Below are positions 1-17,535 of a stretch of DNA of 64,000 nucleotides, piece after piece (the stretch's first letter is position 1; every line of letters starts with the position of its first letter). Made by a program: the position numbers and the translations under genes. Where the stretch lies: contig CAXXQP010000001.1 in NCBI GenBank assembly GCA_963663905.2, positions 28,490 to 92,489 on the forward strand. Reading direction: 5' to 3'. This DNA comes from an uncultured Saccharicrinis sp. GTDB lineage: Bacteria; Bacteroidota; Bacteroidia; Bacteroidales; Marinilabiliaceae. The notes beneath the pieces are model-generated. The model saw nothing but the letters and a program-made list of their open reading frames with translations. It did not search any database and had not been told where the DNA came from.

Positions 1-2330
1 GCAGGGAAAAAGATAAATAGTTTATAAATAACTAATATACAAGCAATATCGATAATTTAAAAATAGATAGTACTGAGAGGAATTTATACTAATTTATCAA
101 AACTAATTATGCTATATATTAAGTATTTTATTAAGTAATAGAAAGTACCCAAATTACAAACTAACCTTAATCTAAGTAACTATACACGGTCATCTCTATA
201 TAAACCTATAATTTAATGAGCTAGTAAATTACTTAGAACTGTTTATTGAAGATATTGCAGTGTTTCCTGAAGGCTAAATTTTTCTATTTTAATCTACAAG
301 CATATTAATAAATATAATGGAAACAATAATGACATGAAAGTTGTATTGAGACATCATAATTGTATATGTCATGAATAAAGTATTATCTTGAATAACACTA
401 GGACTACAGAAATACAGACATGCTTTAAGGTAAGTATCTATACACATTATTTGTATCTATTAAATATGAAGTAATAGGGTAGTAAGACCAGAACTATAAG
501 TAATCTTTCTTGTTGTTAAAATTGAAATCAGAAAAGTCGAATGTGTATAAATAACTATAAAACAACCAATATCAATAATCATCCTGCAAACAGTAGTATG
601 TGGAAATATGTATTGAAGCATAGTAATTCTTTATGTCATGAATAGAGTATTTTTTTAAGTAACATTAGGACTACAGTATAACAGACAGGCCTTAATGTAA
701 GTAACCATACACATTCATTTGTATCTATTATATTAGAATAATAGGGTAGCAAGAGCAAAAATATTTTTAATTATTCTTATTGTTAAGTTAGTAATCAGCA
801 AAGTTGAATGTGTATAAATGACTATAAAACAACCAATATCAATAATCATTCTGCAAACAGTAGTAACTGGAAATATGTATTGAAGCATAGTAATTCTTTA
901 TGTCATGAATAGAGTATTTTTTAAGTAACATTAGGACTACAGTATAACAGACAGGCCTTAATGTAAGTAACCATACACATTCATTTGTATCTATTATATT
1001 AGAATAATAGGGTAGCAAGAGCAAAAATATTTTTAATTATTCTTATTGTTAAGTTAGTAATCAGCAAAGTTGAATGTGTATAAATGACTATAAAACAACC
1101 AATATCAATAATCATCCTGCAAACAGTAGTAACTGGAAATATGTATTGAAGCATAGTAATTCTTTATGTCATGAATAGTGTATTTTTTTGAGTAACATTA
1201 GGACTACAGTATAACAGACAGGCCTTAATGTAAGTAACCATACACATTCATTTGTATCTATTATATTAGAATAATAGGGTAGCAAGAGCAAAAATATTTT
1301 TAATTATTCTTATTGTTAAGTTAGTAATCAGCAAAGTTGAATGTGTATAAATGACTATAAAACAACCAATATCAATAATCATCCTGCAAACAGTAGTAAC
1401 TGGAAATATGTATTGAAGCATAGTAATTCTTTATGTCATGAATAGTGTATTTTTTTGAGTAACATTAGGATTACAGCATTACAAACATACCTTAATGTAA
1501 GTAACTGTACACATTCATTTGTATCTATTAGATTAGAATTAATAGTGTAGTAAGACCAGAACTATAAGTAATCTTTCTTGTTGTTAAAATTGAAATCAGC
1601 AAAATCGAATGAGTATAAATAACTATAACACAACCAATATCAATAATCATCCTGCAAACAGTAGTAACTGGAAATGTGTATTGACATATACTAATTGTTT
1701 ATGTCATGAATAGTGTATTGTATTGAATAACATAAGGACCACAGCATTACAGACATGGTTTAATGTAAGTAACTGTACACATTTAATTGTATCTATTAGA
1801 TTATAATAATAGAATAGTTAGATGAAAAATATTTGTTACCTTTCTAGTATTAATATAGCTGCCAAGAAAGATAAATATTTATAAATAACTAATATACAAT
1901 CAATATCGATAGATTAAAAATAGATAGTACTGAGAGGAAGTTAAATTAATTTATCAAAACTAATTATGTTATATATAGAGTATTCTATTGAGTAATATTA
2001 AGTACCAAAATTACAAACTAACCTTAATCTAAGTAACTATACGCATTCATTTCATTCTATTAAATAATAATAATAAGGTAGCAAGAGCAAAAATATGTGT
2101 TACCTTTCTTGTTGTTAAGTTAGCAATCAGCAAAGTTGAATGTGTATAAATAACTAATATACAGTTAATATCGATAATTATACTGAAAAAAAGTAATGAG
2201 AAAATAATTGTATTAACATAGCAAAAATAATTATTCCAAGCTTAGCAATTGATCGTAGTAAGAATAATTCATTTATATTATTTAAATGTAATACCATAAG
2301 TAACGATACACATTGTAAATAAAATAGAAG
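1..2330. repeat. Non-coding tandem array of ~267-bp units (about 9 units, open at the left window edge), each carrying an iteron-like 15-mer
   Basis: ATGTCATGAATA recurs at 366, 633, 900, 1166, 1433 and 1701. TAAGTAnnnnTACAC recurs at 173, 431, 698, 964, 1231, 1498, 1766, 2030 and 2297. The central units are near-identical and the outer units diverged. No ORF longer than 61 aa. Confidence 0.95.
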
Positions 2331-2335
2331 TTAAG

Positions 2336-2360
2336 CAAAACGGCAAAATTTGCCGTTTTG
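2336..2360. promoter_or_regulatory. Perfect 12+1+12 palindrome CAAAACGGCAAA-A-TTTGCCGTTTTG; candidate parS or operator
   Basis: Seen directly. Shares the 19-bp core AACGGCAAAWTTTGCCGTT with 8760-8782. Function is inferred. Confidence 0.5.
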
Positions 2361-3552
2361 GATTTAATCATTTATATCTCAAATAGAATTTTATAATATT
2401 CATAACTTATAGCAAGATTTAATGCATAAAACTCACAAATAAAAATTACTTATACTTTTATATATTTAAGTAAAATTCTTTGCTAAAAAATGTGATACAA
2501 TTTTATTGTGTAAAAGGAATCCAAGTATAAGACGAATACAAAATTATAAGTTACTTAATCCTGGCATTGAAAACAAAATTAATAGAACTTATCTCTCAAG
2601 ACATTTTTAAGAAAGTAATATGAGTAATGCTGTTTATCTTTGTGATATATCTGGTGGAAAAAATACGAAGTAATATCAAATATATACAATTGATTAAATG
2701 ATACTTACAAAATTAAATAGCTATAATAAAAAACTTCATTATCAATAAGCTGCTTAATCGATTTCTACCTCTAAACAAACAATTTGCATCTTATCATAAA
2801 TCAACACTGATTTATGATTGTTCTTGGTATAGATAAATTATAACAAAAGAAATTTATAAATGAATGAAAAATGTCAGAGAAAGTAAAGTTCATTACTCTG
2901 ATTGCGAGAAACTAAAATTGATTTTATTTTCGAAGGATTAACAACAGCCAAACATAAATCTAAAGCCAACTATTCTGATATCAAAAATCTTAAATAAGCA
3001 GATAAAAAAAAGATATGGAAAGATATAGTTCTATATAATATATACAAAACTGCTACTAGTAATATATTCTAAAAAGTTTACATACACAATGTGAAATAAA
3101 GAGAAAATTTTAGAAATGGACAAATTCACTAGAGAAAATTGCTAAAATTTTTGAACATAAAAAATTCAATCTCCAACATATAATAAAGGAGTTTTTTAAT
3201 ATCTGTTACTACTACTGAATTCCAACATTTTTATAAAAATTAATTCTTCTCAAACTAAATTAGTTGTAACTTTTACTTACTTTGATATAAAGTAAGTAAC
3301 CATACACATTAATAGATGCTTCAATAATAAAACTAAATCCTATATGCTTGATTATATGTTCTTTATATCCATATAAAAATTGTGATTTTAAAAATACTTG
3401 TGTCAAATATAAATCTCTACACGTTAAATTTGAAATTTCCAAAAGTACTATTGTAATGCAAATATCAGAACAAGATGAAAAAAGCAATGCTCATATTTAA
3501 TTATTTAACAATTAATTTCAATAATCATAATTCTAAAAATAAGTACTAATAA

Positions 3553-4442
3553 TTAATGTCAATCAAGAGTTGAAATTAAAGTAAAAATGTGAAGTAAGAG
3601 TCTGTGACTATTTTTATGAATTAGAATATTACTTTGAACTTTTTAGTAATAACAACAAACCAGAATTTATCGAACAGGAAATAATGATAATATACCTATT
3701 CGGGATCCATTATCAAAGTTACACAAAAACAAAGCACATTCACAAATTTGCTATGGATTACCTATTGGATTGGTTTCCTAAACTTGGTTCCTATCAGGCA
3801 GTCAATAATAATAGCTTAAACAATTTGGATGGAGCGTATAATAGGATATTAGAGTTATTTGTTAGAGATTTAAACCAACCGATTGTATTATCGATCAGAA
3901 CTTACTTGATTCCATGCTTATTATTACATATTCGGGTAAGCAAAGGTAAAGTAGCCAGGGAAATAATCGACTAGGGCAGATACTATTATGGTATGAAGTT
4001 GCACATGTTAGGGTTCAGAGGGTCTAGGAACTTTACCGTTCCCAGACCAAATACACTATATGACAGCATCTGTAAACGATATTAATGTTTATAAAGAAGC
4101 TTGATCTGAAATATACGAACGGACTTTCTTTGGTGATAAAATTTATATGAATCAAGAATTTAACGAACAAATAAAAGCAAGTTTAAATTCTGACCCCCGT
4201 AAAGGCCGTAAAAGGTATGCCCGATATTATCAAACAAAGGTTTAAAGCAGCAGAAGATTTGTATTCCACTGCTGTTTCCTGAATCAGGCAACCTATCGAG
4301 GCAATATTCTCGTGGATTATTGAGAAAACAGATATTCAGCGGGCTAGTAAAGTTAGGTCAACCCAAGGCTTGATTTTACATGCCTTGGGCAAACTATTGG
4401 CTGCTTTTTTAAATTATGCTTTTTAACCCTTGATTCGAATAA
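3553..4442 (+). mobile_element. Degenerate IS982-family insertion sequence (transposase pseudogene)
   Basis: Fragments in shifting frames read LLDWFPKLGSYQA, KGKVAREI, GDKIY, RQPIEAIFSW and RASKVRSTQGL, typical of Bacteroidota IS982 transposases, with internal stops. Imperfect terminal repeats AATCAAGAGTTGAAA / TTTTAACCCTTGATT. Confidence 0.8.
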
Positions 4443-4519
4443 TTAACTAATTGCTACAAAAAAATTATGTATTTCAAATAAAACTAATTATAGGGTAAGG
4501 AGGATAAAAGTATTAAACC

Positions 4520-4939
4520 CTATTTCCTAAAATTAAATAGTTTTTCAAGATTATTTGTTTGCATGCTATGTTTACTATTCAAAAAATTTGAAATTTGTAC
4601 AGCATGTATATTTGTTCCTTCGGCTATATCAATTTGCTTTAATTCATGTCGTTTTATAAATTCTTCTAATAATTCTATAAAATTTACTTCTCCTTGCAAA
4701 TTAACATATTGTAAAACAAATCGAGTTATTGCGGAACAAGTGCAAGTATTATTATCCTCAAAAACAGTAATAAATATTTCTCTAAAAAGTTTTAATATAT
4801 TCATTAAATCTAATATTCGATTGTTATCTGTATTATTATTAGACAACTCAGATTTAAGATAAAATATTTGCTTATCAATAATATCAATCATAATATTTGA
4901 ATTTTCATCCCCATATAATTCGTATTTACATTTAACCAC
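4520..4939 (-). CDS. Hypothetical protein with C-terminal XRE/Cro-type helix-turn-helix
   Basis: C-terminus LKQIDIAEGTNIHAVQISNFLN resembles an XRE HTH. The GTG start overlaps the parB stop by 8 nt. Confidence 0.7.
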   Translation of the reverse strand: MVKCKYELYGDENSNIMIDIIDKQIFYLKSELSNNNTDNNRILDLMNILKLFREIFITVFEDNNTCTCSAITRFVLQYVNLQGEVNFIELLEEFIKRHELKQIDIAEGTNIHAVQISNFLNSKHSMQTNNLEKLFNFRK

Positions 4940-5957
4940 GAATTATATTATTGTCTTGTAATAATTTCATAAATCGTTTATCTCGTTCTTCTATAGAGGT
5001 AAACTTTTCATCTATTTGAGTCCATGTTTTATTATCCCTATCTAGAAAAAGTATAGAAGCATCTTCATTATTATCCTTTCTAATAATTTTAAAACCGGAT
5101 TCAATTAATTTACTATAATCGGATTTACTATATTTTGTACTTAAATAATCAGATAATACTGAAAATGCAATCGTTTTATTAACTTTTGACAATCGTTTTT
5201 TTATATCTTTTAAAATATCCTCATATTCATCATGATAATCGGCACCATCATTTACTCCGACTAATTCCTCATTAGATTTTGATTTCTTTTTTCTATAATG
5301 AGAAGTTACTTCGATTAAATCATCCTCATTTTCTATTAATTTATCAATCTCTTTTTTTGATAAATCTTGAATATCTCCTTTAGATACCTTTGCTTTTCCT
5401 CCTAAAATATGCCCCTTAAATTCATCAGAAAGTTTTTCAATTCCACTAGCAAAATGACCAGCATTTCTAATACTTCTTTCAGACATACCAGTACTTGCAG
5501 CTATATCTTTGGCGACATTAACTACATTTTCATCATTGGATCGATCATATTTTCCTTGTCCAGTTTTACGATTATTATAAAGTAGACCAACTAGGTAGGT
5601 TCTATTTGCATCAGACAAATTCCTTCTACCTAATTGCTTTTTCAACATCCAATCCTTTACTTCATCAATATTGGTAAAAGAATGTTCTGTTGTAGCAAAT
5701 GATATATTTAATTCGGTAGCAATTCTATAACGGTTATGACCATCAATAATAATATTCTGACCAAAATCATTATTAACCCAAACATCAATAGGTTCTTTAA
5801 TACCTTCAACTTTTATTGATTCATATAAAAGAGTTTCTTCATCTTCATTTAATGGTGGGATAAAAGATTTAAGTTCAGGTAAAACAGAGATTTCTAAATT
5901 ACCTGAGTTATTACCTAATAATTGATCAAAACCACCAACAAATTTCTTTTTTGCCAT
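4932..5957 (-). CDS. parB: ParB-like partition protein (ParB/Srx N-domain plus HTH)
   Basis: IIDGHNRYRI arginine patch, QLGRRNL motif, HTH GMSERSIRNA and N-terminal AKKKFVGGFDQLL peptide; lies directly downstream of parA. Confidence 0.85.
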   Translation of the reverse strand: MAKKKFVGGFDQLLGNNSGNLEISVLPELKSFIPPLNEDEETLLYESIKVEGIKEPIDVWVNNDFGQNIIIDGHNRYRIATELNISFATTEHSFTNIDEVKDWMLKKQLGRRNLSDANRTYLVGLLYNNRKTGQGKYDRSNDENVVNVAKDIAASTGMSERSIRNAGHFASGIEKLSDEFKGHILGGKAKVSKGDIQDLSKKEIDKLIENEDDLIEVTSHYRKKKSKSNEELVGVNDGADYHDEYEDILKDIKKRLSKVNKTIAFSVLSDYLSTKYSKSDYSKLIESGFKIIRKDNNEDASILFLDRDNKTWTQIDEKFTSIEERDKRFMKLLQDNNIIRG

Positions 5958-5965
5958 TTAAAAAA

Positions 5966-6703
5966 CTAATTAAGTAATTGAATAATTTCATTTGTTAATG
6001 ACTCATAATCGACAGCTCCATTACAATTTGGTTCATAACTAAATATATCAAGACCTGAAGTAGGAGCTTCAGCAAGTGAAATATTATCACGGATTAAGGT
6101 ATTAAAGACTTTATTTCCAAGACTATTTTTAATACTTTCAAGTACATCTCTATTTAAAACCTTTCTTGAATCGTATTTTGTAATAAAAACTTTATCGATT
6201 TCTAAACCTATTTTTGATATCGCTTCACTTAGAATTGAATACCCTTTTAATGATAAATATTCAGCTTCTACTGGAATAATAATATATTCTGATGCAACAA
6301 AACTATTAATTGTTAACACTCCTAATGCAGGAGGACAATCAATAATAATGAAATCATATTTGTCCTTGACTTCTTCTAGTAAGGTAGATAAAACAAATTC
6401 TCTTTTAAATACACTTGCCATTTCAAACTCAGCCTTACTTAATTCAAGACTAGATGGAACTAGATCTAAATTATCCTTTATTGAAAGAATAGGGAGGTTA
6501 CTTTTACCCAATAAAGCATCATAGACACTTTCTTGAGGATCATTAATTCCAAGAGATTGTGTTAAATTATATTGAGGATCTAAATCAATTAATAAAGTTT
6601 TTTTTCCTTTTATAGCAAGACAAGCTCCAACATTTATTGATGATGTTGTTTTTCCAACACCTCCTTTAAAATTTGCAATCGATATTGTAATAGTAGAATT
6701 CAT
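5966..6703 (-). CDS. parA: ParA/Soj-family partition ATPase
   Basis: Deviant Walker A KGGVGKTT, IDLDPQ and IIIDCPP motifs. Confidence 0.97.
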   Translation of the reverse strand: MNSTITISIANFKGGVGKTTSSINVGACLAIKGKKTLLIDLDPQYNLTQSLGINDPQESVYDALLGKSNLPILSIKDNLDLVPSSLELSKAEFEMASVFKREFVLSTLLEEVKDKYDFIIIDCPPALGVLTINSFVASEYIIIPVEAEYLSLKGYSILSEAISKIGLEIDKVFITKYDSRKVLNRDVLESIKNSLGNKVFNTLIRDNISLAEAPTSGLDIFSYEPNCNGAVDYESLTNEIIQLLN

Positions 6704-6993: not shown

Positions 6994-8507
6994 GTAACTA
7001 TTCAGTCAAATTTTAAAAACATAAATTTTTCTGGAGAATGTTGATAAGTATTACTGAAATAAAGAAAATTGTGAATAAAGAATATGAGATATAGTTTCAG
7101 TAAAGAGTAGGTATGTCGACCTTTACATCTGCATGGGAAAGAAGAAAAGTATAGAAAAAAAATTAGATGCCTTATTTGTTAGAGTTGATAAACTCGAAAC
7201 AGAGAACAAGGAACTTCGCGAGGAAAATGCCACCCTCAAAGAACGTCTTTCTCATTATGAAACACCAAAGAACAGTAGAAATAGCAGCAAGCCACCTTCA
7301 TCTGATTTCCCCAAATTACCTAGAACACAATCGTTACGAAAAAAATCAGGCAAAAAACCAGGAGGGCAATCAGGACATAAAGGCAATACACTAAAAATGG
7401 TCGAAGAACCAACTGTTATACAAGAACACTATTCAAATTATTGTAAGTGTTGTGGCAATAATCTTTCAGATATAGCAGGCACATTTGCAGGAAGACGTCA
7501 GGTAATTGACATACCACCTATTAAACCAGTGGTTACCGAACACCGTATTTACCATAAACAATGCAGTTGTGGAATGGTAAACAAGGGATGCTATCCTAAT
7601 CAAGTAAATACACCTGTTAGTTATGGTACAAACACTCAGGCCTTAGCTGCTTACATGCATACTCGCCAATATATGCCTTATGACCGCTTGCGTGAATTCT
7701 TTAATACCATATTAGGGTTAAAAATTAGTACCGGAGGTTTAAACTATCTGATTGGTAAGTTCACTAAAAAAGCAACTCCTTTCTACGAGCAAATACGTAA
7801 CAATGTACTTTCTCATTGTACTGTTGGAGCTGATGAAACAGGAACTAATATTAATGGAAAACTTGATTGGGCATGGGTCTTTCAAAATGCACAATCTACC
7901 TTTTTATCTGTTCATCAGAAACGAGGTTATGATGCTATTGAGGAAATTATGCCGGAAGGTTTTAAAAACAATACTTTGGTAACAGATTGTTGGAAACCTT
8001 ATTTTAAAACACAAGCAGGGAATCACCAATTGTGTACTGCCCACCTTTTAAGAGAGCTTGAATTCTTTATCCAGAAATATCCCAAAAGCAACTGGGCATC
8101 GAAAATGAAAACGCTTATTATTAAAGCCCTAAAAATCTACAACAATAATTGGGATGATAAGGCAACTAAAGCACAAATATTTAAAGCATTTGTGAAACTC
8201 CAAAATAAGCAGATTAGCGAAACATTAAAAGAAGTGGTTGTCTTTAAAAACAGATTAGTAAAATACGCTGATTATGTATTCACATTCCTAAATCAACCTG
8301 ATGTTCCTCCTGATAATAATGCTTCGGAACGGGCTGTGAGAAATTTTAAAGTAAAACAAAAAGTCAGTGGTTTCTTCAAATCATTTGAAGGTGCAAATCA
8401 TTATGCAATACAAAGATCTATTATAGATACAGCTATCAAGAGTTCTCAAAATCCCTTTGATACGCTTCGTGCTATAGCTATAGTTTAAGGCATGACTGAA
8501 TAGTTAC
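6994..8507 (+). mobile_element. Intact single-ORF IS66-family element (ISBst12-like)
   Basis: Perfect 15-bp terminal inverted repeats GTAACTATTCAGTCA / TGACTGAATAGTTAC. 8-bp target duplication GAAAAATT at 6986-6993 and 8508-8515. Confidence 0.95.
7133..8488 (+). CDS. IS66-family transposase (TnpC-like)
   Basis: Coiled-coil N-terminus, NSSKPPSSD, GGQSGHKG, zinc finger, ADETG, HQLCTAHLLREL and PDNNASERAVR. Confidence 0.95.
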   Translation: MGKKKSIEKKLDALFVRVDKLETENKELREENATLKERLSHYETPKNSRNSSKPPSSDFPKLPRTQSLRKKSGKKPGGQSGHKGNTLKMVEEPTVIQEHYSNYCKCCGNNLSDIAGTFAGRRQVIDIPPIKPVVTEHRIYHKQCSCGMVNKGCYPNQVNTPVSYGTNTQALAAYMHTRQYMPYDRLREFFNTILGLKISTGGLNYLIGKFTKKATPFYEQIRNNVLSHCTVGADETGTNINGKLDWAWVFQNAQSTFLSVHQKRGYDAIEEIMPEGFKNNTLVTDCWKPYFKTQAGNHQLCTAHLLRELEFFIQKYPKSNWASKMKTLIIKALKIYNNNWDDKATKAQIFKAFVKLQNKQISETLKEVVVFKNRLVKYADYVFTFLNQPDVPPDNNASERAVRNFKVKQKVSGFFKSFEGANHYAIQRSIIDTAIKSSQNPFDTLRAIAIV

Positions 8508-8759
8508 GAAAAATTTTTATCTATTAAATATGTTAATCTAATTCATTTTTGATTGTATTCTCAGTAATATATAGCAAATAATATATCTTATTAATAGTTA
8601 ATTTGAAATTTGATTTTCTACAATATAAATTGATCATAAAAATCTGTTTTAGGTTTACTAACAAAAAGTTTGAGTTTTACGATTATTTTAATAATTAACT
8701 TTTGAACAACAAATTCTTTATCTGGAAACAAGTTTTAAAAAATACATTAAGAAAAAATG

Positions 8760-8782
8760 ATAACGGCAAATTTTGCCGTTAT
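8760..8782. promoter_or_regulatory. Perfect 11+1+11 palindrome ATAACGGCAAA-T-TTTGCCGTTAT; candidate parS or operator
   Basis: Seen directly. Same core as 2336-2360. Lies between parA and the iteron cluster. Confidence 0.5.
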
Positions 8783-9057
8783 GCTAATACTAATCATACT
8801 ATAAAAAAATATAATACTCTTTGCCAAACTTGGAGATAGTAAAATTAGATCTTAATATACATTTTGTTAAATCCCTTTCCCCCCTTAATAAAACTATTGC
8901 GTAAGCAATTTAATTTTTAGTGATTTATAATTTTTATTACAGACTGTTTTGGTACAAATAAAGATCAGTTAAGTGATATTAGTATAGATTTAGTAAAATC
9001 ACGCCTTATTGTAATTTCTTTATAGTATTTAATATACTAGTATTATATATAATAGAG

Positions 9058-9407
9058 GTGTAGAGATAATTAGGTTATAAAGTATTATCTCATTGATATT
9101 AAATATTTTAAGCATACTGAATACGTGTAGACTTACTTACGATAATAAATAGAAAATTATATTTGAGGACTAATTTGTGTAGACTTACTTACTATATAAT
9201 GATATATTGTGTAGAGATGCTTCCTAAAAAAGGTGTAACTGTGTATGTTTAGTTACATTAAAACGGTTTAATGTGTATAATTACTTATGTTTTAAACTAT
9301 TAGTGTGTAACCTTACTTATATTAAAAGTATAGTTTTGTGTATAATTACTTACGTTAAACTATGGTTTTGAAATATATAAATGTAGTATCGTGTATACTT
9401 TCTTACG
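9058..9407 (+). promoter_or_regulatory. Iteron cluster (putative replication origin), consensus GTGTAnnnTTACTTA
   Basis: Copies start at 9125, 9177, 9209, 9241, 9273, 9305, 9338 and 9391 (spacings 52, 32, 32, 32, 32, 33, 53), with a weaker copy at 9058. AT-rich flanks; immediately upstream of the rep-like gene. Confidence 0.85.
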
Positions 9408-9587
9408 TTTTAAGATGATAGAAAGATTTATTGATGATTACTCTACAAATCATTAAAATTACATAATAAAACTAGAACAAAGTATTTTAAGTGAAATTTA
9501 TTACGTATATTTTCAAAAAAAGTCGTATTTATAACTGAATTCTTTCTTATTTTTAGTTATGTTTGTTACTACAAACACAGTTCATAA

Positions 9588-10817
9588 ATGAAGCAGCCCT
9601 CAAGCATAGGAATAGCACCAAATTTAGTACGAGTAGATAAGAATGTTGCTTATAATATTACAGATTTTTCATTAATTAATGATGAATCTGGTCTTATAAA
9701 ATCACTTATTTATTACTTTTGTCACTCTTATCAAAATAATTTTTTTGGATATGGAGTACTAGACCCTATGCATTTTGCAAAAACATTTAATTACACTACC
9801 AATTATCTTCAAGCAACTGTTAAAAAACCTGCTCAGTTTAAAGGAAAATCGGAAAAAGAAATAAGTTTCCTGATACAAGCAGAAAAAGAAGATCCTTCTC
9901 AACGAGTATTTGATAGTAGATTAGAAAATGCTTTGTATATTTTGTCAACACAACCTGTAAGTTTTTCTAACGAGGGTCAAATTAGAGATTTTAATGAAGA
10001 TATAGGATATTTTTACAGAAAGATTTCTTCAATGTTGTTCATTGAACAATTAGAAGTTCGATTTACTAGACCAAAATCGGGGAGAGGGAAGGAAAAAATA
10101 TTATACAACTATCAGTTGAATAAGGAATTTGTAAAAAACTTGTCTACATTTTATTTAAAAGCGAATACGAATTCATTTATTAAACTGCGTAAAGCGAATT
10201 TTGATGACTTATACATTCATTTAGTTACAGCAAGAACAAATTTGTCTGTTAAAAATGAACACATCTACAGGCCTAAATTTGATCACCTTTGGTCTGTTTT
10301 AGGTAAGCATAGGGAAGAAAAAAGAGAACAAAAACGAGAGCTAAAAAAAGCATTAGAAAAGATACAAAAAGAAACGGAGTTAAATTTTGAATTAACTTGG
10401 GAAAAAAGTCCAAACTCAAGATTTGCTTATCAACCAGTAATAAATTTTGAGAAGATTTTCTCAACACCTAAAGAAAGAGAAGATGCTATAAAGAATGAAC
10501 GCAGACAAGTTTTTGATCAAAACTTAATTCATGAAATGCTTGAAGTTTTAAAAAGTGTCAAGCCTAGTAAATATTACTCTGAAAATAGAGAAAATAATTT
10601 TCTTAATTGGATGAGAGATAATAAAATTGATATACGTGAAAAATCAGCTGCGTATGAACAAGCTCAACTAAAGACCTACTTAAAAATACCAAAACACATT
10701 GACGCTTATAAACGTTCTTTTTTTAATAACATAAAACCAACATCTACTTTAAAAGAAATATTTACAGATGTAGAAATAAATCATAATGCTCCAAAACAAG
10801 AATATATTATAGATTAA
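9588..10817 (+). CDS. Putative replication initiator, divergent Rep_3/RepB-like winged-helix protein
   Basis: Segments DDLYIHL and HLWSVLG...KRELKKALEKIQKETELNFELTWEK...VINF follow the Rep_3 WH2 pattern. Context: preceded by iterons, divergent from parAB. TATGTTTG -7 box at 9558. Confidence 0.65.
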   Translation: MKQPSSIGIAPNLVRVDKNVAYNITDFSLINDESGLIKSLIYYFCHSYQNNFFGYGVLDPMHFAKTFNYTTNYLQATVKKPAQFKGKSEKEISFLIQAEKEDPSQRVFDSRLENALYILSTQPVSFSNEGQIRDFNEDIGYFYRKISSMLFIEQLEVRFTRPKSGRGKEKILYNYQLNKEFVKNLSTFYLKANTNSFIKLRKANFDDLYIHLVTARTNLSVKNEHIYRPKFDHLWSVLGKHREEKREQKRELKKALEKIQKETELNFELTWEKSPNSRFAYQPVINFEKIFSTPKEREDAIKNERRQVFDQNLIHEMLEVLKSVKPSKYYSENRENNFLNWMRDNKIDIREKSAAYEQAQLKTYLKIPKHIDAYKRSFFNNIKPTSTLKEIFTDVEINHNAPKQEYIID

Positions 10818-10847: not shown

Positions 10848-11915
10848 CTATAAATTCAATAACTCATCATTCCAATCTTTGGAATTGCATTTGATTAGCT
10901 TTATATCATATTTAATATCGTTTGAATTAACTAATTTATTAAGGAACCATTTGAAAGAATCTTTATCTTTTATAAGATATTCTTCATTATCTATAATTAA
11001 TTCAACAAGATTAGTATCTATTTTTAGAATTTTTAGAGACTTATTAGTAGCAAACTTCGTAATAATTTTCAAATCATTTTTTAATCCCCCAAAATCATTA
11101 TCATTAATTAAAATGATACTCTTATATATTCCTTGATCAACTAGATTAAAGAGTTTTTGACACTGTTTATCACTAATAGTCCCAAAAGAGGCAACATGTG
11201 TACTAGTAAAATCTCTATTAATTTGACAATAAGAAAGATTATCAATAGGATTTTCAGAAATAACCAAAGTCTTGTGTGTTTTGGAATAATTTGAAACCCA
11301 AAAAGAATCAACTACTTCACTGCCCAAAGCCATTTTCTTTTCGTTTGAATCTCTTATTTCTAAGCCTACGACTGTTTTATCCTTAATTGAGGGGAATCCA
11401 GTCATAACGGGTCCATAATTACTTTTGGTCTTAAAACCATATTTGTAACAGTTTACTATAGTCCCTTTAAATAATGGATGATTAATTGTTTCCTTATTCA
11501 AACCCCGACTCAATAAAAAATCATAATTGATTAATTCATGTGGAGCATAGAGTTCATATTCAAATTTTACTTTCTCTTGAAAAGTTTTAATTTCCTGGGT
11601 AAGTTCTTTTCCTCCGGAATCTTCATCCAACTTGGCAAAGGCTTTAGCATAATCTTGTTTGGACTTACTATCTGTACTCAGATAACCATTGATCCTATTG
11701 ACTACAAAATTGATAATATTACCTTTATCCCTGGTATCGTTAAGATTCTGATAAATATACTTTCCTGTTTTTTGATGCCTCAGTACTAAAAGCTTCTCCC
11801 CATCTTTCTCAAATACCTTTTGCCTGGCAGTAGATTTATGTATATCTATCACATATCCTGAACTTAAAAGATACTTGGTCAGATCAATTTTTTCTATGTA
11901 ATGAAAAGCATCCAT
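10848..11915 (-). CDS. Toprim-domain (primase-like, DUF3991-type) protein
   Basis: DKGNIINFV, ISENPIDNLSY, NDNDFGG and terminal KDWNDEL motifs. Confidence 0.8.
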   Translation of the reverse strand: MDAFHYIEKIDLTKYLLSSGYVIDIHKSTARQKVFEKDGEKLLVLRHQKTGKYIYQNLNDTRDKGNIINFVVNRINGYLSTDSKSKQDYAKAFAKLDEDSGGKELTQEIKTFQEKVKFEYELYAPHELINYDFLLSRGLNKETINHPLFKGTIVNCYKYGFKTKSNYGPVMTGFPSIKDKTVVGLEIRDSNEKKMALGSEVVDSFWVSNYSKTHKTLVISENPIDNLSYCQINRDFTSTHVASFGTISDKQCQKLFNLVDQGIYKSIILINDNDFGGLKNDLKIITKFATNKSLKILKIDTNLVELIIDNEEYLIKDKDSFKWFLNKLVNSNDIKYDIKLIKCNSKDWNDELLNL

Positions 11916-11983
11916 AGGATCATTAATTCATATTCCAAATTTGAATAACAATAATCAAAAATTATATAACCTGAAAATTACTA

Positions 11984-12262
11984 TTATTCTATCAGTTTCA
12001 ATAAAAGATTTTTAATTTCTTCAGTTTTATCTTTTTTAACGACAGGTTGTACATGAAGACAAAGTGATTCAATAGCTATTTCTTTGTGACTTAAAACCAT
12101 TTCCTTGGTATAGCCGCAGTATAAATCCAGATAATCTTTGATAACCACTTTAGGGAAGGGACTATTCTCTTCCAAGGCATACTCAATCAGGTGTTTCACT
12201 GCTATTTTTTCACTTTTAGATAATTCGCTCATTAGAAAATTCATAAATAATACTCGGGGCAA
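11984..12262 (-). CDS. Small hypothetical protein
   Basis: 92-aa ORF co-oriented with the toprim gene; TATTTTTG -7-like box upstream on the minus strand. Confidence 0.55.
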   Translation of the reverse strand: MPRVLFMNFLMSELSKSEKIAVKHLIEYALEENSPFPKVVIKDYLDLYCGYTKEMVLSHKEIAIESLCLHVQPVVKKDKTEEIKNLLLKLIE

Positions 12263-12956
12263 AAATAGTAAATTTTGCGAGTAATTCTTTTAAGGGGGAG
12301 GAGATTAAAAAAAGAGTCTATTGAACATATATAGCTATAGGACACTAATTTTAATTTATCGTCATAAATTAAAATTTAGGCAGGAGTGATTGCGCCGTGG
12401 GGTTAATTAACATAGTGCCGCTATAGGACTGCCGGAGGTATTCTGTTTACACCGTTGAAGATAGGCAAGTTTTATAGCGAGGCATTATGTTATTATTAGC
12501 TTTGGGGTGCTGTTTTTGGCGTTGCTTTTGCCGGAGTCAGCTTTTATGGCTTTGGAGTAAATATGTTGAAGTAAGGTACGAGCGGAAACAATTTGCGAGA
12601 AAGTTATAAATGCTATGGGATTGTGCCAGGTTTCCTGGTGCTCGGTTTTTAAGGCATTTTTAGTAGTGAGGTACGAACTGTGAAATGACTTAAATACCGA
12701 GTGTGGGTTTGGGCAAAAGGTATGACAAAAACAGCAACAGAAGAGTAGGGAAGTTGCAAACATAGATTGCATGGATTTTTTGAATAAGAAATAATGTGTG
12801 GGTAAAAACAGCTGTTGCCATTGATTAAGCGTGCTGTAAATATGAAATGGCAATTGCTGTTGGGAAAAAGGAGGTTTTTAAATGGAGCGAAGAGGAGTGA
12901 AAATACCGGGATGTGTGAAGGTTTTGATTACAAATCAAGCGCCAACTAAGAAGTGG

Positions 12957-13189: not shown

Positions 13190-16100
13190 TTATTCTTTAA
13201 AATCTATTTTAGTATGAGAACTGAGTCCCCATTTCTGTTGTACTCTTTTGATTAGATAAAATACGATGGGTACAATAATCATTGATAAAAACATTGAAAC
13301 AGTTAATCCTCCAATTAGAGTCCAACCAATTCCGTTTTTCCATTCTGCACCTTCACTTTGAGAAAATGCTAAGGGGAATAGTCCGATAATCATGGAAATA
13401 TTAGTCATTAAAATCGGTCGAAAACGGAGTTCTACAGAGGTTTCAATTGCTTGTAATAGAGTTTTCCCTTCATTCAAGAGTTCGTTGGCAAAATCCACAA
13501 TAAGAATTGCATTTTTAGCTACCAAACCTACCAACATCACAATACCAAGAATAGAAAAAATATTCAAATTTTGATTTGCTAAAGCTAACGCCCATATCGC
13601 ACCAATTATTGATAATGGAATAGAGAACATAACTACAAAAGGATCTGCCCAGCTGTCGTATAATACAACCATGATTAAATAAACGGAAATGATTGCAGCC
13701 AACAATGCTAATCCTAAAGAAATGAAAGACTCAGCCATCATTCTTGTTTGCTTGGATGTTGTCACTTTTGTTCCTGCAGGGGCTTTTATTTCTTTTAATT
13801 TCTCTTCAAAAGCAGTTTGAACCGAAGCCTGTGATGCACCAATAATCTGACTTGTTAATTTGGTAGACGGGCTTCTGTTATATCTTTCTAAATTTGATGG
13901 CCCAACACCTTCTTTTATTTGGGCAAACTGAGATAGTTTTATCAATTCGTTGGTAGCCATTGAAGGGAATGAAATATCTTCCAGGTCGTTTTTGTTTCTT
14001 CTGTCAGCCTCGTTTAATTGAATATTTATATCGTACTCTTTTGTTTCGTCCCTAAATTTATTGTCTGTATTTCCGGCAAATGAAGTTCTCAGGATTCCCG
14101 CAACCGAAGCCAGATCAAGCCCTAACTTTGTCATTTTATCCCTATCAACATCTATTACGTATTCAGGGTTGTTTTTGTCAACGCTTAATTCAGTTTCTAG
14201 GGTTCCTTCTATTGAAGATAAACAATCTTTTACCTGGTATGCGTAATGCATTACACTGTCCATATTATACCCTACAATAAAATAGCTTAATGGCACATCT
14301 TCACTACCCATGATGTTTACAGAAACAGCTTTTATCTTTGCACCTAGTGTGGTTTCTTCAAGATGAGCCTTTGTTTTTCTGGCATAAACATTAGTCGATT
14401 CGTCACGTTTATCCTTTGGAACCAGATAAACATTGATATCGCTATAGTAAGGAGTAGAAGTGGTACTAATCATACCTGATCTTTTTCCAATAGTAGCATA
14501 AACCATATCAATTTCGGGTTGATTGAGTAAGTATTGTTCAATCTCCCTTGTTTTATTATTGTTCTCTTGCAGACTTACGTCATGGGCATATTCAAGGCGC
14601 AGCATAAATACACCACGATCACCGGAAGAGGCGAATTCACCCCCGATAAAACCTGCAGGGAATAACATAAAGGTTCCCAAAAACAGTATGGCAGTAGTCA
14701 GCAAAGTAACCGTTTTGTGCTTTAAAGACCAGTGCATTGCAGAAACAATGTTTTTATTTACAGCATTGATTGATTTTTCAAATCCATTTAAGAAACTACT
14801 TATTATTTTGTTCTTTGGCGCGGACAGTTTGGCCCACTTTGATGTCATCCAGGGCACTAAAGTAAAGGAAACCAATAAACTGAACAGCATTGAAATAACG
14901 ATTGTAACAGCATACTCTCTAAGTATGTCTCCAACCACTCCGGTTACAAATGCAATAGGCAAGAATACTGCTACCAGTACCAGGGTAATAGCTGTTACAG
15001 TCATCCCTAATTCCTTAAGACCGTCATATGAAGCCTGAACTTTATTTTTGCCCATTTCCATATGCCTGTAAATATTCTCAATTACAACAATGGCATCATC
15101 AACTAACGAACCCACAACAAGCGACAACGATGTTAAACTGATGAGGTCGAAAGAAAAATCAAGCAAATACATGGCCGTAAATGTTGAGATTAACGATGTT
15201 GGTATGGCAACAAGAACAAAGATTGAGTTCCTTAAACTATGTAAAAACAACACCATGATTACAGAAACCAGGATTATAGCCATGATTAAATCATGCTCTA
15301 CAGCAGTTGCTGCCTGGATGGTAAACTGAGATTGGTCCTCAGCAATTCTAAATTTTATATTTTCTTTTGTGTACTGTTCCTCCAATTCAGTAAACTTCTG
15401 GCGAACCAGTCGGATTACTTCTACCGAATTGGCATCTTTTTGCTTACTGATTTCTATACCAATAGTTTCGAGGCCATTTAAACGTGTAATTTTTTCCTGA
15501 TCGGCAATGCCATCATAAATATCTGCAATCTCGCCTAATCGAAGTATCGATCCGGTTTTGTTTGCTCCAATGATAATATTCTTTAGTTGATCAATAGTTC
15601 TTATTTTACCGGAAAGACGTACTGTCATTTCATTAGTTGGCGTTTGTAACTTTCCAGTAGGTAACTCAAGGTTTGCATATTGTATCATTTGAGTTACATT
15701 AAGCAGGTTGAGCTTATTGGCTTTAAGTTTTAAAGGATCAATCATGATTTTAATTTCCCTTTCAACGCCACCCACCAGGTTAACCGTTGCCACCCCTTGT
15801 ATACTTGCCAAATCTGGTTTGATCCTGTCGTCTACAAATTGAAAAAACTTACTGTCTGAAAGTGATGAGTTTACTCCGGCAATAAAAATAGGTAATGAAC
15901 TTAAATCAAATTTTTCAATAGACGGAGCCTTTATTTCTTTAGGAAGAGTACTGACAATGCTATTTACTTTTTGGGTTAATTCCTGCACGGCAATATTTAC
16001 GTCAGCATCAAAATTTAAAGACAATGTAACAACAGACAGGTTTTCGATGGAAGAAGATGTCATTTCTTCAATCCCTTCGAGTGAGGATACAGCATCCTCA

Positions 16101-16300
16101 ATAGGAACAGTTACAGATTGCTCTACTTCTTTAGGACTTGCTCCCGGATAAATGGTAGTGACCACAACTGTAGGAGAAGATATTTCAGGTATAAGAGCAT
16201 ATTTTATTTTTGAGGCAGAGAACAATCCCAGTAATATAAGGATGGTAAACAGTACAATGGGTACTGTGCCTCGTTTTATGGATGTGCTTACAATTTTCAT
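13190..16300 (-). CDS. RND efflux transporter permease (AcrB/AcrD/AcrF family)
   Basis: 1036 aa; GSLVDDAIVVIENI, AKNAILIVDFA and LRFRPILMT motifs. Confidence 0.97.
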   Translation of the reverse strand: MKIVSTSIKRGTVPIVLFTILILLGLFSASKIKYALIPEISSPTVVVTTIYPGASPKEVEQSVTVPIEDAVSSLEGIEEMTSSSIENLSVVTLSLNFDADVNIAVQELTQKVNSIVSTLPKEIKAPSIEKFDLSSLPIFIAGVNSSLSDSKFFQFVDDRIKPDLASIQGVATVNLVGGVEREIKIMIDPLKLKANKLNLLNVTQMIQYANLELPTGKLQTPTNEMTVRLSGKIRTIDQLKNIIIGANKTGSILRLGEIADIYDGIADQEKITRLNGLETIGIEISKQKDANSVEVIRLVRQKFTELEEQYTKENIKFRIAEDQSQFTIQAATAVEHDLIMAIILVSVIMVLFLHSLRNSIFVLVAIPTSLISTFTAMYLLDFSFDLISLTSLSLVVGSLVDDAIVVIENIYRHMEMGKNKVQASYDGLKELGMTVTAITLVLVAVFLPIAFVTGVVGDILREYAVTIVISMLFSLLVSFTLVPWMTSKWAKLSAPKNKIISSFLNGFEKSINAVNKNIVSAMHWSLKHKTVTLLTTAILFLGTFMLFPAGFIGGEFASSGDRGVFMLRLEYAHDVSLQENNNKTREIEQYLLNQPEIDMVYATIGKRSGMISTTSTPYYSDINVYLVPKDKRDESTNVYARKTKAHLEETTLGAKIKAVSVNIMGSEDVPLSYFIVGYNMDSVMHYAYQVKDCLSSIEGTLETELSVDKNNPEYVIDVDRDKMTKLGLDLASVAGILRTSFAGNTDNKFRDETKEYDINIQLNEADRRNKNDLEDISFPSMATNELIKLSQFAQIKEGVGPSNLERYNRSPSTKLTSQIIGASQASVQTAFEEKLKEIKAPAGTKVTTSKQTRMMAESFISLGLALLAAIISVYLIMVVLYDSWADPFVVMFSIPLSIIGAIWALALANQNLNIFSILGIVMLVGLVAKNAILIVDFANELLNEGKTLLQAIETSVELRFRPILMTNISMIIGLFPLAFSQSEGAEWKNGIGWTLIGGLTVSMFLSMIIVPIVFYLIKRVQQKWGLSSHTKIDFKE

Positions 16301-16314
16301 ATCGATACTTTATT

Positions 16315-17382
16315 CTAATTCAATATTTTAACATTAGCCTGGTCATAAATACTATAATTACCTTCAATTACGACTTTGTCTTCTGATTTCAGGCCATTGA
16401 TAATTTGAACCTGATCGTTAATGACTTTACCGCATGTAACATTTGATAAAACAGCCTTATTATCCACAACTAAAAAAACCGAAGCATCTTTTAAAGAGCC
16501 GGAAATCGCCTTTCTTGGGATGTAATACTCATTGGAGTTACCTGTAATTTTAATTTTTGCAGTTACGTACATACCCGCTTTTAAAAGCCCCTCATTGTTG
16601 TTATTAATTTTAACTTCTGCACTAAAGCTATTACCATAGCCTGCTTTTTTTCCTAAATAAGAAATTGTTCCACTAAAATTTTGGTCTGGAAATGTAGATG
16701 TATTAATTTCCACTTCCATGCTTTTTTTAATGTTTAGATAATTCTCTTCAGAAACTTCAATCTGCAGTTTTAAATTTTTTGAATCAATAATATTACATAC
16801 AACACTTCCATTGCCAATAAACTGTCCAATTTCAATAAAGTCCTGCTCAATATATCCATCAACAGGAGATGTGATACAAGTGTTTTTTAACTGTTTTTTT
16901 GCTGAAACATATTGTGCTTTTGTTGTTTCGTAATTGAGTTGAATTTCTTCTAACTGTTGACTGGTAACCGCATTTTGATTTACCAGTTTTGTAAAACGAT
17001 CAACCTCTTTTTGTAACTGGTCGTAGCTTGCTTTTGTGGCGTTCAGTTGAGCTTTTAACATTTCGTCGTCTACTTTTGCTATGGTATCGCCAACTTGAAC
17101 ATACTCACCTTTTCTTTTAAAAATTCTTACTATTCTTCCATTGGTTTCGGCTACCAGGTTTAAATCTGTATAGGATTGCAAAAATCCATTTGTATTAATA
17201 GAGGAGTTAAATGTTGATGGTTTTACAGTGATAACTTTTACCGGATAGTATTGCCCTTTGATATTTGCCAATTCGGTTATGGATTGATTATTTTCCTTAT
17301 TTCCCTTCAGTTGAAAAAAGATAAGCAAGCCTATTACAATCAGTATTGCAATGGAAGCAGAGGTTTTTAATATTTTTTTCAT
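16315..17382 (-). CDS. RND efflux periplasmic adaptor (MFP)
   Basis: N-terminal membrane anchor, lipoyl-like ITSPVDG, coiled hairpin, GMYV motif; in operon with RND and TolC. Confidence 0.95.
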   Translation of the reverse strand: MKKILKTSASIAILIVIGLLIFFQLKGNKENNQSITELANIKGQYYPVKVITVKPSTFNSSINTNGFLQSYTDLNLVAETNGRIVRIFKRKGEYVQVGDTIAKVDDEMLKAQLNATKASYDQLQKEVDRFTKLVNQNAVTSQQLEEIQLNYETTKAQYVSAKKQLKNTCITSPVDGYIEQDFIEIGQFIGNGSVVCNIIDSKNLKLQIEVSEENYLNIKKSMEVEINTSTFPDQNFSGTISYLGKKAGYGNSFSAEVKINNNNEGLLKAGMYVTAKIKITGNSNEYYIPRKAISGSLKDASVFLVVDNKAVLSNVTCGKVINDQVQIINGLKSEDKVVIEGNYSIYDQANVKILN

Positions 17383-17461
17383 TACTATTATTTTTTTAAA
17401 TTCATATATAGATGGAATGTAGTTCTTTCCAGGTATCAGGTGTTTTAATTTTGCTTTTTAT

Positions 17462-17535
17462 TGTCACATGGAACTCGCCAAATTCAATCATACTCCTATG
17501 TGAGAAGAAATTCTCATGGCTCGTTTCATTTTATC
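17462..17535 (-). repeat. ~70-bp interspersed intra-operon element, copy B
   Basis: Minus strand reads ATGAAACGAGCCATGAG...ATGATTGAATTTGGCGAGTTCCATGTGAC, matching 60450-60522. Confidence 0.75.

Follow-up and report, generated by a model that had tools for sequence, protein, structure and literature searches.

The window analyzed here is a stretch of 64,000 nucleotides from an uncultured Saccharicrinis sp. (contig CAXXQP010000001.1, positions 28,490 to 92,489). Its left end is occupied by a tandem array of ~267-bp non-coding units, in which every unit carries a copy of a 15-mer that matches the iterons in front of a replication initiator gene (rep, 9588-10817) some 7 kb away. From the array rightward, the replication and partition region holds an isolated iteron, a partition (par) operon on the minus strand, an IS66-family insertion, the origin iterons, rep and a convergent gene for a Toprim-domain protein (Table 1). 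Based on the sequence of the array, its conservation and its counterparts in related replicons, the array could be a reserve of initiator-binding sites that limits replication.

A tandem array with one iteron per unit

Tandem Repeats Finder (TRF) gave a period of 267 bp, with 6.8 copies and 85% matches over positions 342-2156, and an alignment anchored on the 15-mer resolved nine units across positions 1-2330. In unit 9 the iteron and the 5' half are left and the remainder has been lost. Units 3-5 were 97-99% identical to one another; unit 6 shared 89-91% and unit 7 shared 81-83% identity with these three, and units 1, 2, 7 and 8 showed 54-83% identity with other units. A second subtype was formed by units 1 and 8, which shared 73% identity with each other and 54-69% with the other units. 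An earlier note on this DNA, made from the letters alone, had described at least nine non-coding units of about this length, and the TRF result, the unit alignments and the ratio of nonsynonymous to synonymous polymorphism (pN/pS, given below) bore this out.

The 15-mer, TAAGTAnnnnTACAC, is the reverse complement of the iterons preceding the 9588-10817 gene. The same note had placed it at nine positions in the array. Eight of these copies are exact, the one at 2030 has a mismatch (TACGC), and an exact copy at 3293 had been overlooked. Exact motif matches in the 64-kb window numbered 14, compared with 0.03 expected. Successive array copies are spaced by 258, 267, 266, 267, 267, 268, 264 and 267 bp and have a single orientation throughout, opposite to that of the origin iterons. 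The array lies beyond the par operon, 2.2 kb downstream of the last par gene, and the interval between the two contains the isolated iteron and little other coding sequence. Its sites recur every 258-268 bp and lie 7 kb away from rep, so this is not a compact cluster adjoining rep of the incA/incC type. The isolated iteron at 3293 lies within an incomplete inverted repeat of the half-site TTACTTAC (~3273-3302), which is not kept in the closest related replicon, L003 (described below).

To compare array and origin sites, we have used a 21-nt weight matrix that draws on 30 distinct iterons from the origins of four replicons (the window, L003, L001 and L004), with the array sites excluded from training; a 27-nt matrix was over-fitted in its flanks and was set aside. 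Only 18 sites in the 64 kb scored above 20 bits, namely eight origin sites, the nine array sites and the one at 3293. Scores ranged from 20.2 to 27.1 bits in the array and from 20.3 to 29.8 bits at the origin, and the best score in 30 shuffles was 19.0 bits. The agreement between the two consensus sequences runs past the 15-mer, to ~20-22 bp (origin, tGTGTA.A.TTAcTTAc.tTa.AA; array, AATGTGTATaGTTACTTAcatTAa). The match to the origin iteron consensus that had been claimed for the 15-mer thus holds for all nine copies, and, judged by sequence, the array 15-mers are full iterons of full strength. Elsewhere in the window, nothing of the unit comes back except the iteron. We have considered whether the unit derives from the origin region or recurs in the window, and rejected both, since only the iteron is shared.

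The array in independent assemblies

Logan contigs from independent public runs contain pieces of the array without differences. In run X2, the piece corresponding to 1174-1381 had a word depth of 153, against ~53 for the flanking unique sequence, which is consistent with three near-identical units. The array is not an assembly artefact, a concern that had been raised from the letters alone: independent short-read assemblies hold it at the expected depth. The array had also been suspected to run on leftward, and a contig present in three runs showed that it does. This contig leads from sequence identical to 1742-1808, including the iteron, through 40 nt to window base 1, so that at least one further unit lies left of the window. 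Two other array-like contigs, of 411 and 1674 nt, had unique depth and were identical to no window unit, which suggests several more units beyond the window.

The origin and its initiator

Nine iterons lie beside rep, and the central six have a period of 32-33 bp, or approximately three helical turns. This is the direct-repeat arrangement of an iteron-type theta replicon. A search near the origin returned no perfect DnaA box, the hits with one mismatch overlapped iterons, and the whole region has a GC content of 25-28%. The cumulative GC skew is lowest at 10-12 kb and climbs steadily rightward of rep, and the genes between 19 and 51 kb all point rightward; the skew minimum and the gene direction fit an active origin at this place.

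The 409-residue product of 9588-10817 (Rep) had no sequence match in Pfam, NCBIfam or PDB and could not be assigned to Rep_3 (PF01051/PF21205); among 94 Rep relatives, three gave faint hits to Rep3_N or Rep3_C (expect value [E], 0.0015-0.0047). No sequence relation to RepE or RepA was detectable. The AlphaFold2 model obtained with the 94-sequence alignment had a predicted local distance difference test (pLDDT) score of 93.4 and a predicted template modelling (pTM) score of 0.91, and it superseded an earlier model from an 8-sequence alignment (pLDDT of 67, weak fold hits). In a Foldseek search of the PDB, the top 45 hits were all F-plasmid RepE, mostly on iteron-containing (cognate) DNA, with probabilities of 0.96-1.00 (1.00 for 40 of the 45). 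Target-normalised template modelling scores were mostly 0.45-0.61, and the two RepE-dimer/operator chains had scores of 0.32-0.37. On the predicted structure, Rep is a RepE-fold initiator with two winged-helix domains.

The loci of Rep homologues pointed in the same direction. A tandem repeat of 30-33 bp was found directly beside the homologue in 11 of 14 loci (27-100% protein identity), and its sequence changes along with the protein; L005, with a Rep of 37% identity, retains AAGTAAGTCTAC. The identification of this gene as rep, proposed from the letters, is thus upheld by the fold and by the repeats. An exhaustive HMMER search resolved the family into 294 clusters at 50% identity. The members L001 and L002 have Bacteroidota-type conjugation genes adjacent (TraG, TraM, DUF4138). 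A plasmid database held no nucleotide match, and the protein search of it returned four distant, unannotated hits only. Scanning viral contigs with the iteron block gave five single chance hits.

Constraint within the units

We have assessed conservation on 13 non-redundant units from the window and L003, whose pairwise identity was 54-91%. Mean pairwise identity reached 0.965 in the 11 specified motif columns and 0.647 elsewhere (Mann-Whitney p = 2e-5), invariant columns made up 11 of 15 in the motif against 52 of 261 elsewhere, and the motif mask ranked first among 262 offsets. Compared with neighbouring positions, the 15-mer was the best-conserved stretch across the 13 diverged units, and it is preserved intact in 17 units with 54-91% identity in their other sequence. 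Such a pattern indicates that the sites are selectively retained.

Two more boxes stood out, CAAGCAATATCAATA (box A, ~131 bp left of the iteron) and CATGAATAGAGTATT (box B, ~61 bp left), both with a conservation of 0.87, compared with 0.92 for the 15-mer. As the boxes are nearly equally conserved, the iteron is not the sole constrained part of the unit. The earlier note had argued for selection on the 15-mer and its spacing; the motif is indeed the most constrained part of the unit, but boxes A and B are almost as conserved, and this half of the picture had been missed. The boxes suggest that at least one additional factor may be bound. They are restricted to the arrays of the window and L003, and no meaningful copy was found outside the arrays across 19 loci. 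The best-conserved unit elements (iteron, box A and box B) are asymmetric; an 8-bp palindrome, TATCGATA, lies inside box A, in the outer-unit variant only. The length of the unit is constant within ~5 bp despite a substitution divergence of 25-45%.

In most units of both arrays, a minus-strand open frame of 50-65 codons is found in the same register, despite a GC content of 25% (window positions 463-630, 736-897, 1002-1163, 1269-1430, 1531-1698 and 2050-2241, and likewise in L003). It has 11 stops, compared with 31-54 in the remaining five frames. Its pN/pS was 1.06, third positions were no more variable than the others, and the start codon was not conserved; we have rejected coding units on the pN/pS and on the absence of codon periodicity and of a conserved start. 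An Rfam search of the units returned no match, a search for RNA-seq runs identified none, terminators within units were not found, and a scan with the sigma-70 consensus, a poor fit to Bacteroidota, showed no enrichment of per-unit promoters. Neither an AT-rich unwinding element nor a set of DnaA boxes was identified in the units, where the hits with one mismatch overlap iteron-like half-sites. The only DnaA box candidate, TTATACACA, was rejected: it forms the left half of a sequence resembling the iteron and has no conserved counterpart in L003.

Arrays in related replicons

L003, a 10.1-kb contig (Plebeiibacterium sediminum AAT scaffold_107), shares the layout of the window and has a Rep identical at 408 of 409 residues. 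DNA identity between the two was highest in rep (97-98%), followed by par (93-97%), the origin intergenic region (82-90%) and the array and spacer (only ~74-75%). The L003 array begins at the contig end and has a period of 267 bp with 6.7 copies. Its iterons are at 216, 478, 739, 1006, 1272, 1541, 1805 and 1891, and an isolated exact copy is at 4431. Seven of these iterons belong to 267-bp units (five exact, two with one mismatch) at a spacing of 261-269 bp, and an exact copy follows 86 bp further. The unit subtypes are collinear between the two arrays (W173 with S478, W431 with S739), so the array is older than the split between the window and L003, and units have been gained and lost since. 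The suggestion that the array is expandable fits with this history, given that three to four units are recent duplicates and that the array of L003 is ~74% identical with a different unit content. The sequences thus indicate that the array varies in copy number.

L004 (OY782090), a 57-kb replicon from a Saccharicrinis metagenome-assembled genome, has a Rep 90% identical to that of the window and eight core iterons at ~32 bp. A 169-bp unit with three iterons is repeated 6.3 times (94% identity) between the core iterons and rep, at 8662-9725. A second array, of 48 bp x 9.1 (95% identical), lies downstream of the L004 par operon at 2581-3019. We have found no homology of the 267-bp unit with this 48-bp array, and the iteron alone is common to the 169-bp and 267-bp units, which points to an independent origin. 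To judge from this comparison, long iteron-bearing tandem units arose at least twice in this Rep lineage and are not family-wide. Similar arrays near Rep homologues were thus found in L003 (267 bp) and L004 (169 bp), and the flanks of the more distant relatives, of up to 10 kb, contained no distal iterons. The statement that iterons are not normally embedded in long tandem units is correct for the known loci, which are compact, but L004 is another case in which they are.

In runs X7 and X9, window-like and L003-like replicons were present at similar depth (~25 and 29 in X7; ~19 and 28 in X9), and common par and rep segments had a depth of ~40-44, about the sum of the two. The window-like copy there is mosaic, its par and rep being of the L003 type. 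The depths could reflect mixed samples or the co-residence of two replicons that share their Rep and iterons.

Partition operon, palindrome and neighbouring genes

The genes and sites of the region are listed in Table 1. The IS66 element between parA and the origin is missing in L003, so the present layout is not ancestral and the origin and the par operon were formerly closer. The Toprim_2-domain protein encoded downstream of rep may be a primase-like partner of the initiator.

The window, L003 and L004 each have two copies of a perfect 17-bp palindrome (ACGGCAAA-N-TTTGCCGT, mostly ATAACGGCAAAnTTTGCCGTTAT; 0.01 copies expected by chance), all of them close to the par operon. Its copies in the relatives are at 1935-1951 and 7530-7546 in L003 and at 4589-4605 and 6020-6036 in L004, and in the window and L003 they flank the par operon. 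From its sequence and position, this palindrome could be the parS or operator site of the ParB-like or the helix-turn-helix (HTH) protein, and it is a better centromere candidate than the array. Exact-protein look-ups of Rep, the ParB-like protein and the HTH protein returned no record.

Positions 3684-4440 hold frameshifted open reading frame fragments that had no Pfam hit and were left unnamed; L003 has ~1.5 kb of unrelated sequence there. The fragments may be a decayed transposase gene, which they resemble. The cargo at 12000-64000 includes a resistance-nodulation-division (RND) efflux system (13190-18901), an AraC-type regulator and a one-directional glycoside-hydrolase cluster with GH43, GH3 and rhamnosidase genes, UxuA and a major facilitator superfamily (MFS) transporter. 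GC content is 36-39% in most of the cargo (30-32% at 48-56 kb) and 24-31% in the replication/partition region. The protein cluster is on record in a 479-kb contig, and the window belongs to a large accessory, plasmid-like replicon.

Table 1. Positions of the array, iterons, boxes, palindromes and genes in the window
Feature	Position	Strand	Basis or remark
Tandem array, nine ~267-bp non-coding units, unit 9 truncated	1-2311		TRF, unit alignments, independent contigs and depth
Array iteron 1 (GTGTATAGTTACTTA on minus strand)	173-187	-	24.4 bits
Array iteron 2	431-445	-	20.2 bits
Array iteron 3	698-712	-	26.4 bits
Array iteron 4	964-978	-	26.4 bits
Array iteron 5	1231-1245	-	26.4 bits
Array iteron 6	1498-1512	-	27.1 bits
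Array iteron 7	1766-1780	-	27.1 bits
Array iteron 8, one mismatch (GCGTA for GTGTA)	2030-2044	-	21.0 bits
Array iteron 9, truncated terminal unit	2297-2311	-	21.1 bits
Isolated iteron between array and par operon	3293-3307	-	25.6 bits; L003 counterpart 4431-4445
Box A (CAATATCRATAAT), ~131 bp left of each iteron	567-579	+	Unit alignment
Box A, other copies	44-56, 834-846, 1100-1112, 1367-1379, 1635-1647, 1901-1913 (2 mismatches), 2166-2178 (1 mismatch)	+	Unit alignment
Box B (CATGAATAGWGTATT), ~61 bp left of each iteron	637-651	+	Unit alignment
Box B, other copies	370-384, 904-918, 1170-1184, 1437-1451, 1705-1719	+	Unit alignment
Origin iterons, nine sites: 9058, 9125, 9177, 9209 (weak), 9241, 9273, 9305, 9338, 9391	9058-9405	+	Motif GTGTAnnnnTACTTA, weight matrix
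Rep, predicted RepE-like fold, two winged-helix domains and C-terminal helical extension	9588-10817	+	AlphaFold2, Foldseek, iterons beside homologues
Perfect palindrome ACGGCAAAATTTGCCGT, 28 bp right of last array iteron	2340-2356		Palindrome scan
Second copy of palindrome (ACGGCAAATTTTGCCGT), ~280 bp left of first origin iteron	8763-8779		Palindrome scan
Small protein with weak HTH match, last par-operon gene	4520-4939	-	HTH_37, E 9e-4 (below cut-off); L004 gene order identical
ParB-like protein, weak match	4932-5957	-	TIGR00180, E 0.0035 (below cut-off); position after parA
ParA partition ATPase	5966-6703	-	AAA_31 2e-55, CbiA 4e-22
IS66-family insertion between parA and origin, transposase 7133-8488 (+)	7003-8509	+	DDE_Tnp_IS66 E 2.6e-38, DUF6444, zf-IS66; breakpoints against L003; inverted ends
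Toprim-domain protein, convergent with rep, immediately downstream	10848-11915	-	Toprim_2, E 2.7e-7; L004 counterpart 11258-12340

Possible function of the array

Iteron replicons are the classic example of control through initiator titration and origin handcuffing, and the auxiliary iterons of P1 incA restrain copy number by these means. The interpretation that we favor, to which we give about an even chance, is that the array is a Rep sink or handcuffing array like incA and incC, in a long-period format, that would limit initiation. The array would be a bank of auxiliary binding sites for the replicon's own Rep, of which a monomer would read the half-sites GTGTA and TTACTTA, with centres about one helical turn apart. 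Rep would be loaded for DNA opening at the nine origin sites, of which six have the 32-33-bp period. The at least 10 equally good sites of the array, in reverse orientation and 7 kb off beyond the par operon, would titrate Rep, and they could pair through Rep-Rep contacts with origin iterons of the same or a sister molecule (handcuffing). Together, titration and handcuffing would hold back initiation and in this way set copy number and incompatibility, and the brake might be retuned whenever unequal crossing-over shifts the number of units. We infer from the sequence both the binding of Rep to the array and the negative sign of its effect. As the spacing of 267 bp is larger than the DNA persistence length, adjacent units could in principle loop together, which is speculation. 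The iterons of F incC reduced copy number and caused incompatibility through looping and titration (PMC13028717), handcuffing is described as a negative control (PMC6312765, PMC5397158), and in Vibrio cholerae chromosome 2 distal iterons titrate RctB (PMC6090056).

Several observations weigh against a Rep sink. In the auxiliary iteron loci known so far, the sites form a compact cluster, tens of bp from one another, that usually lies beside rep, and here the sites are 267 bp apart and 7 kb off. Titration leaves boxes A and B, nearly as conserved as the iteron, unaccounted for, and a simple sink would not need the period of 261-269 bp that is retained at 25-45% divergence. More distant Rep homologues were without distal iterons in flanks of up to 10 kb, so that the array is no general need of the family. 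The co-occurrence of two such replicons in X7 and X9, if in the same cell, would seem odd for a strong incompatibility determinant.

An extension of the Rep sink, which we hold to be unlikely, is a composite module in which each unit would bind one Rep monomer together with one or more other factors at boxes A and B, so that the one-way row of at least 10 modules, capped by the palindrome of the ParB or HTH protein, would do more than titrate. Such a row could couple initiation to partition, support Rep-based sister pairing, or act as a polar fork trap that makes the replication of a replicon of several hundred kb one-directional. The coupling could work, by analogy with ParB2 at the Vibrio 39-mers, through ParB spreading from the palindrome and freeing Rep. 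If this were true, the layout would be undescribed for any iteron replicon.

The array could instead be a sopC-like centromere or pairing site of the ParA/ParB-like/HTH operon, with box A, box B or both bound by partition proteins and the iteron as a co-factor site or incidental. It lies downstream of the par operon, as do sopC and P1 parS, it is a regular tandem array with conserved boxes besides the iteron, the outer-unit form of box A holds the palindrome TATCGATA, and L004 has its 48-bp array in the corresponding position. We nevertheless consider a centromere improbable: the L004 array is dissimilar to the 267-bp unit, the replicon holds no copy of box A or B outside the array and the par promoter shows unremarkable 10-mers only, the top-conserved element of the unit is a Rep site and not a palindrome, and the conserved 17-bp palindrome near the par operon would serve better. 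A positive or architectural role in replication, in which the array loops to the origin and helps or redirects initiation as in R6K, or in which its one-way row of Rep-DNA complexes stalls the leftward fork and makes replication effectively unidirectional, would suit the uniform orientation of the array iterons, opposed to that of the origin iterons, the position of the array as the first thing the leftward fork meets after the par operon, the size of the replicon (to judge from the 479-kb contig) and the steady rise in GC skew right of rep. Such a role is nonetheless decidedly unlikely in our view, considering that the units lack a recognizable unwinding element or DnaA-box set, that the skew is visible only right of the array, within the window, and that literature searches gave no case of Rep-iteron arrays as programmed fork barriers.

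It is unlikely that the array is a neutral or selfish satellite, amplified by unequal recombination from a segment with one iteron such as that at 3293, in which the likeness of the units would stem from recent amplification and gene conversion. The near identity of units 3-5 does indicate recent amplification, between the window and L003 the array (~74% identity) has diverged much more rapidly than the genes (93-98%), it is missing from L004 and more distant relatives, and insertion-sequence activity nearby marks the region as permissive. Homogenisation, however, predicts even conservation, and the observed peak is local and falls exactly on the site defined by the origin. The intact motif in 17 diverged units, the constancy of unit length to ~5 bp, and an orthologous-looking unit order with the array retained on both sides of the split also argue against a passive satellite. 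That the units encode a small peptide or a small RNA is very improbable. The minus-strand frame, open in most units of both arrays, has few stops for such AT-rich DNA, but its pN/pS, its lack of third-position periodicity and of a conserved start codon do not fit a gene, nor do the absent Rfam match, the lack of enrichment of promoter-like sites and the missing in-unit terminators fit an RNA.

Comparison with known systems

The closest parallels to a Rep sink are F incC, with five iterons downstream of repE, and P1 incA, with nine downstream of repA. As in the window, extra origin iterons lie outside the minimal origin, the initiator has the RepE fold (here by prediction), and the sites of the control locus are at least as many as those of the origin. 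In incA and incC, however, the sites are tens of bp apart over ~100-300 bp, directly beside rep, whereas here there is one per 267 bp over at least 2.3 kb, 7 kb from rep, and each unit of the window bears two further conserved boxes, unlike in incA and incC. To our knowledge, the well-studied iteron control loci are all compact clusters in Proteobacteria.

In R6K, the distal iterons at ori-alpha and ori-beta lie kilobases off and communicate with the main cluster by initiator-mediated looping; they activate distant origins and consist of single or half sites, whereas the window has an array of at least 10. The sopC locus of F (12 x 43-bp) resembles the window array as a regular tandem array downstream of a parA-parB operon, but the sopC units hold an inverted repeat bound by SopB, whereas the units here are about six times longer and their constrained element is a Rep iteron. 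L004 has the same Rep family and the same iteron in long units, and differs in having three iterons per unit, in the core-iteron orientation, and in the place between core iterons and rep.

On Vibrio cholerae chromosome 2, an RctB-binding locus of five iterons and a 39-mer-like site in 74 kb has been likened to datA of Escherichia coli. As in the window, initiator sites lie kilobases from the origin on a large plasmid-derived replicon, and there they lower initiation by titration (PMC6090056). In Vibrio, a ParB site beside the inhibitory initiator sites modulates these, and the window has a conserved palindrome right beside its array. The Vibrio sites, however, are scattered rather than tandem, and that system uses methylation and crtS, with no evidence for either here.

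Among marine and gut Bacteroidota, the unannotated RepE-fold initiator family is a marker of plasmids, of conjugative elements and of a large replicon for polysaccharide degradation, and it would help to type replicons and build vectors in a phylum for which genetic tools are scarce. The variable number of units, together with the 169-bp, three-site unit of the relative, provides a natural test system that could separate titration (number of sites) from looping or handcuffing (distance and phase). Compared with the systems above, the array is of a known kind, that of auxiliary iterons outside the origin. Literature searches returned no description of one site per 267-bp unit in at least 10 units kilobases from rep, and the array would be new in its format: a long-period array with extra boxes in each unit, on a Bacteroidota replicon with an unannotated initiator family.

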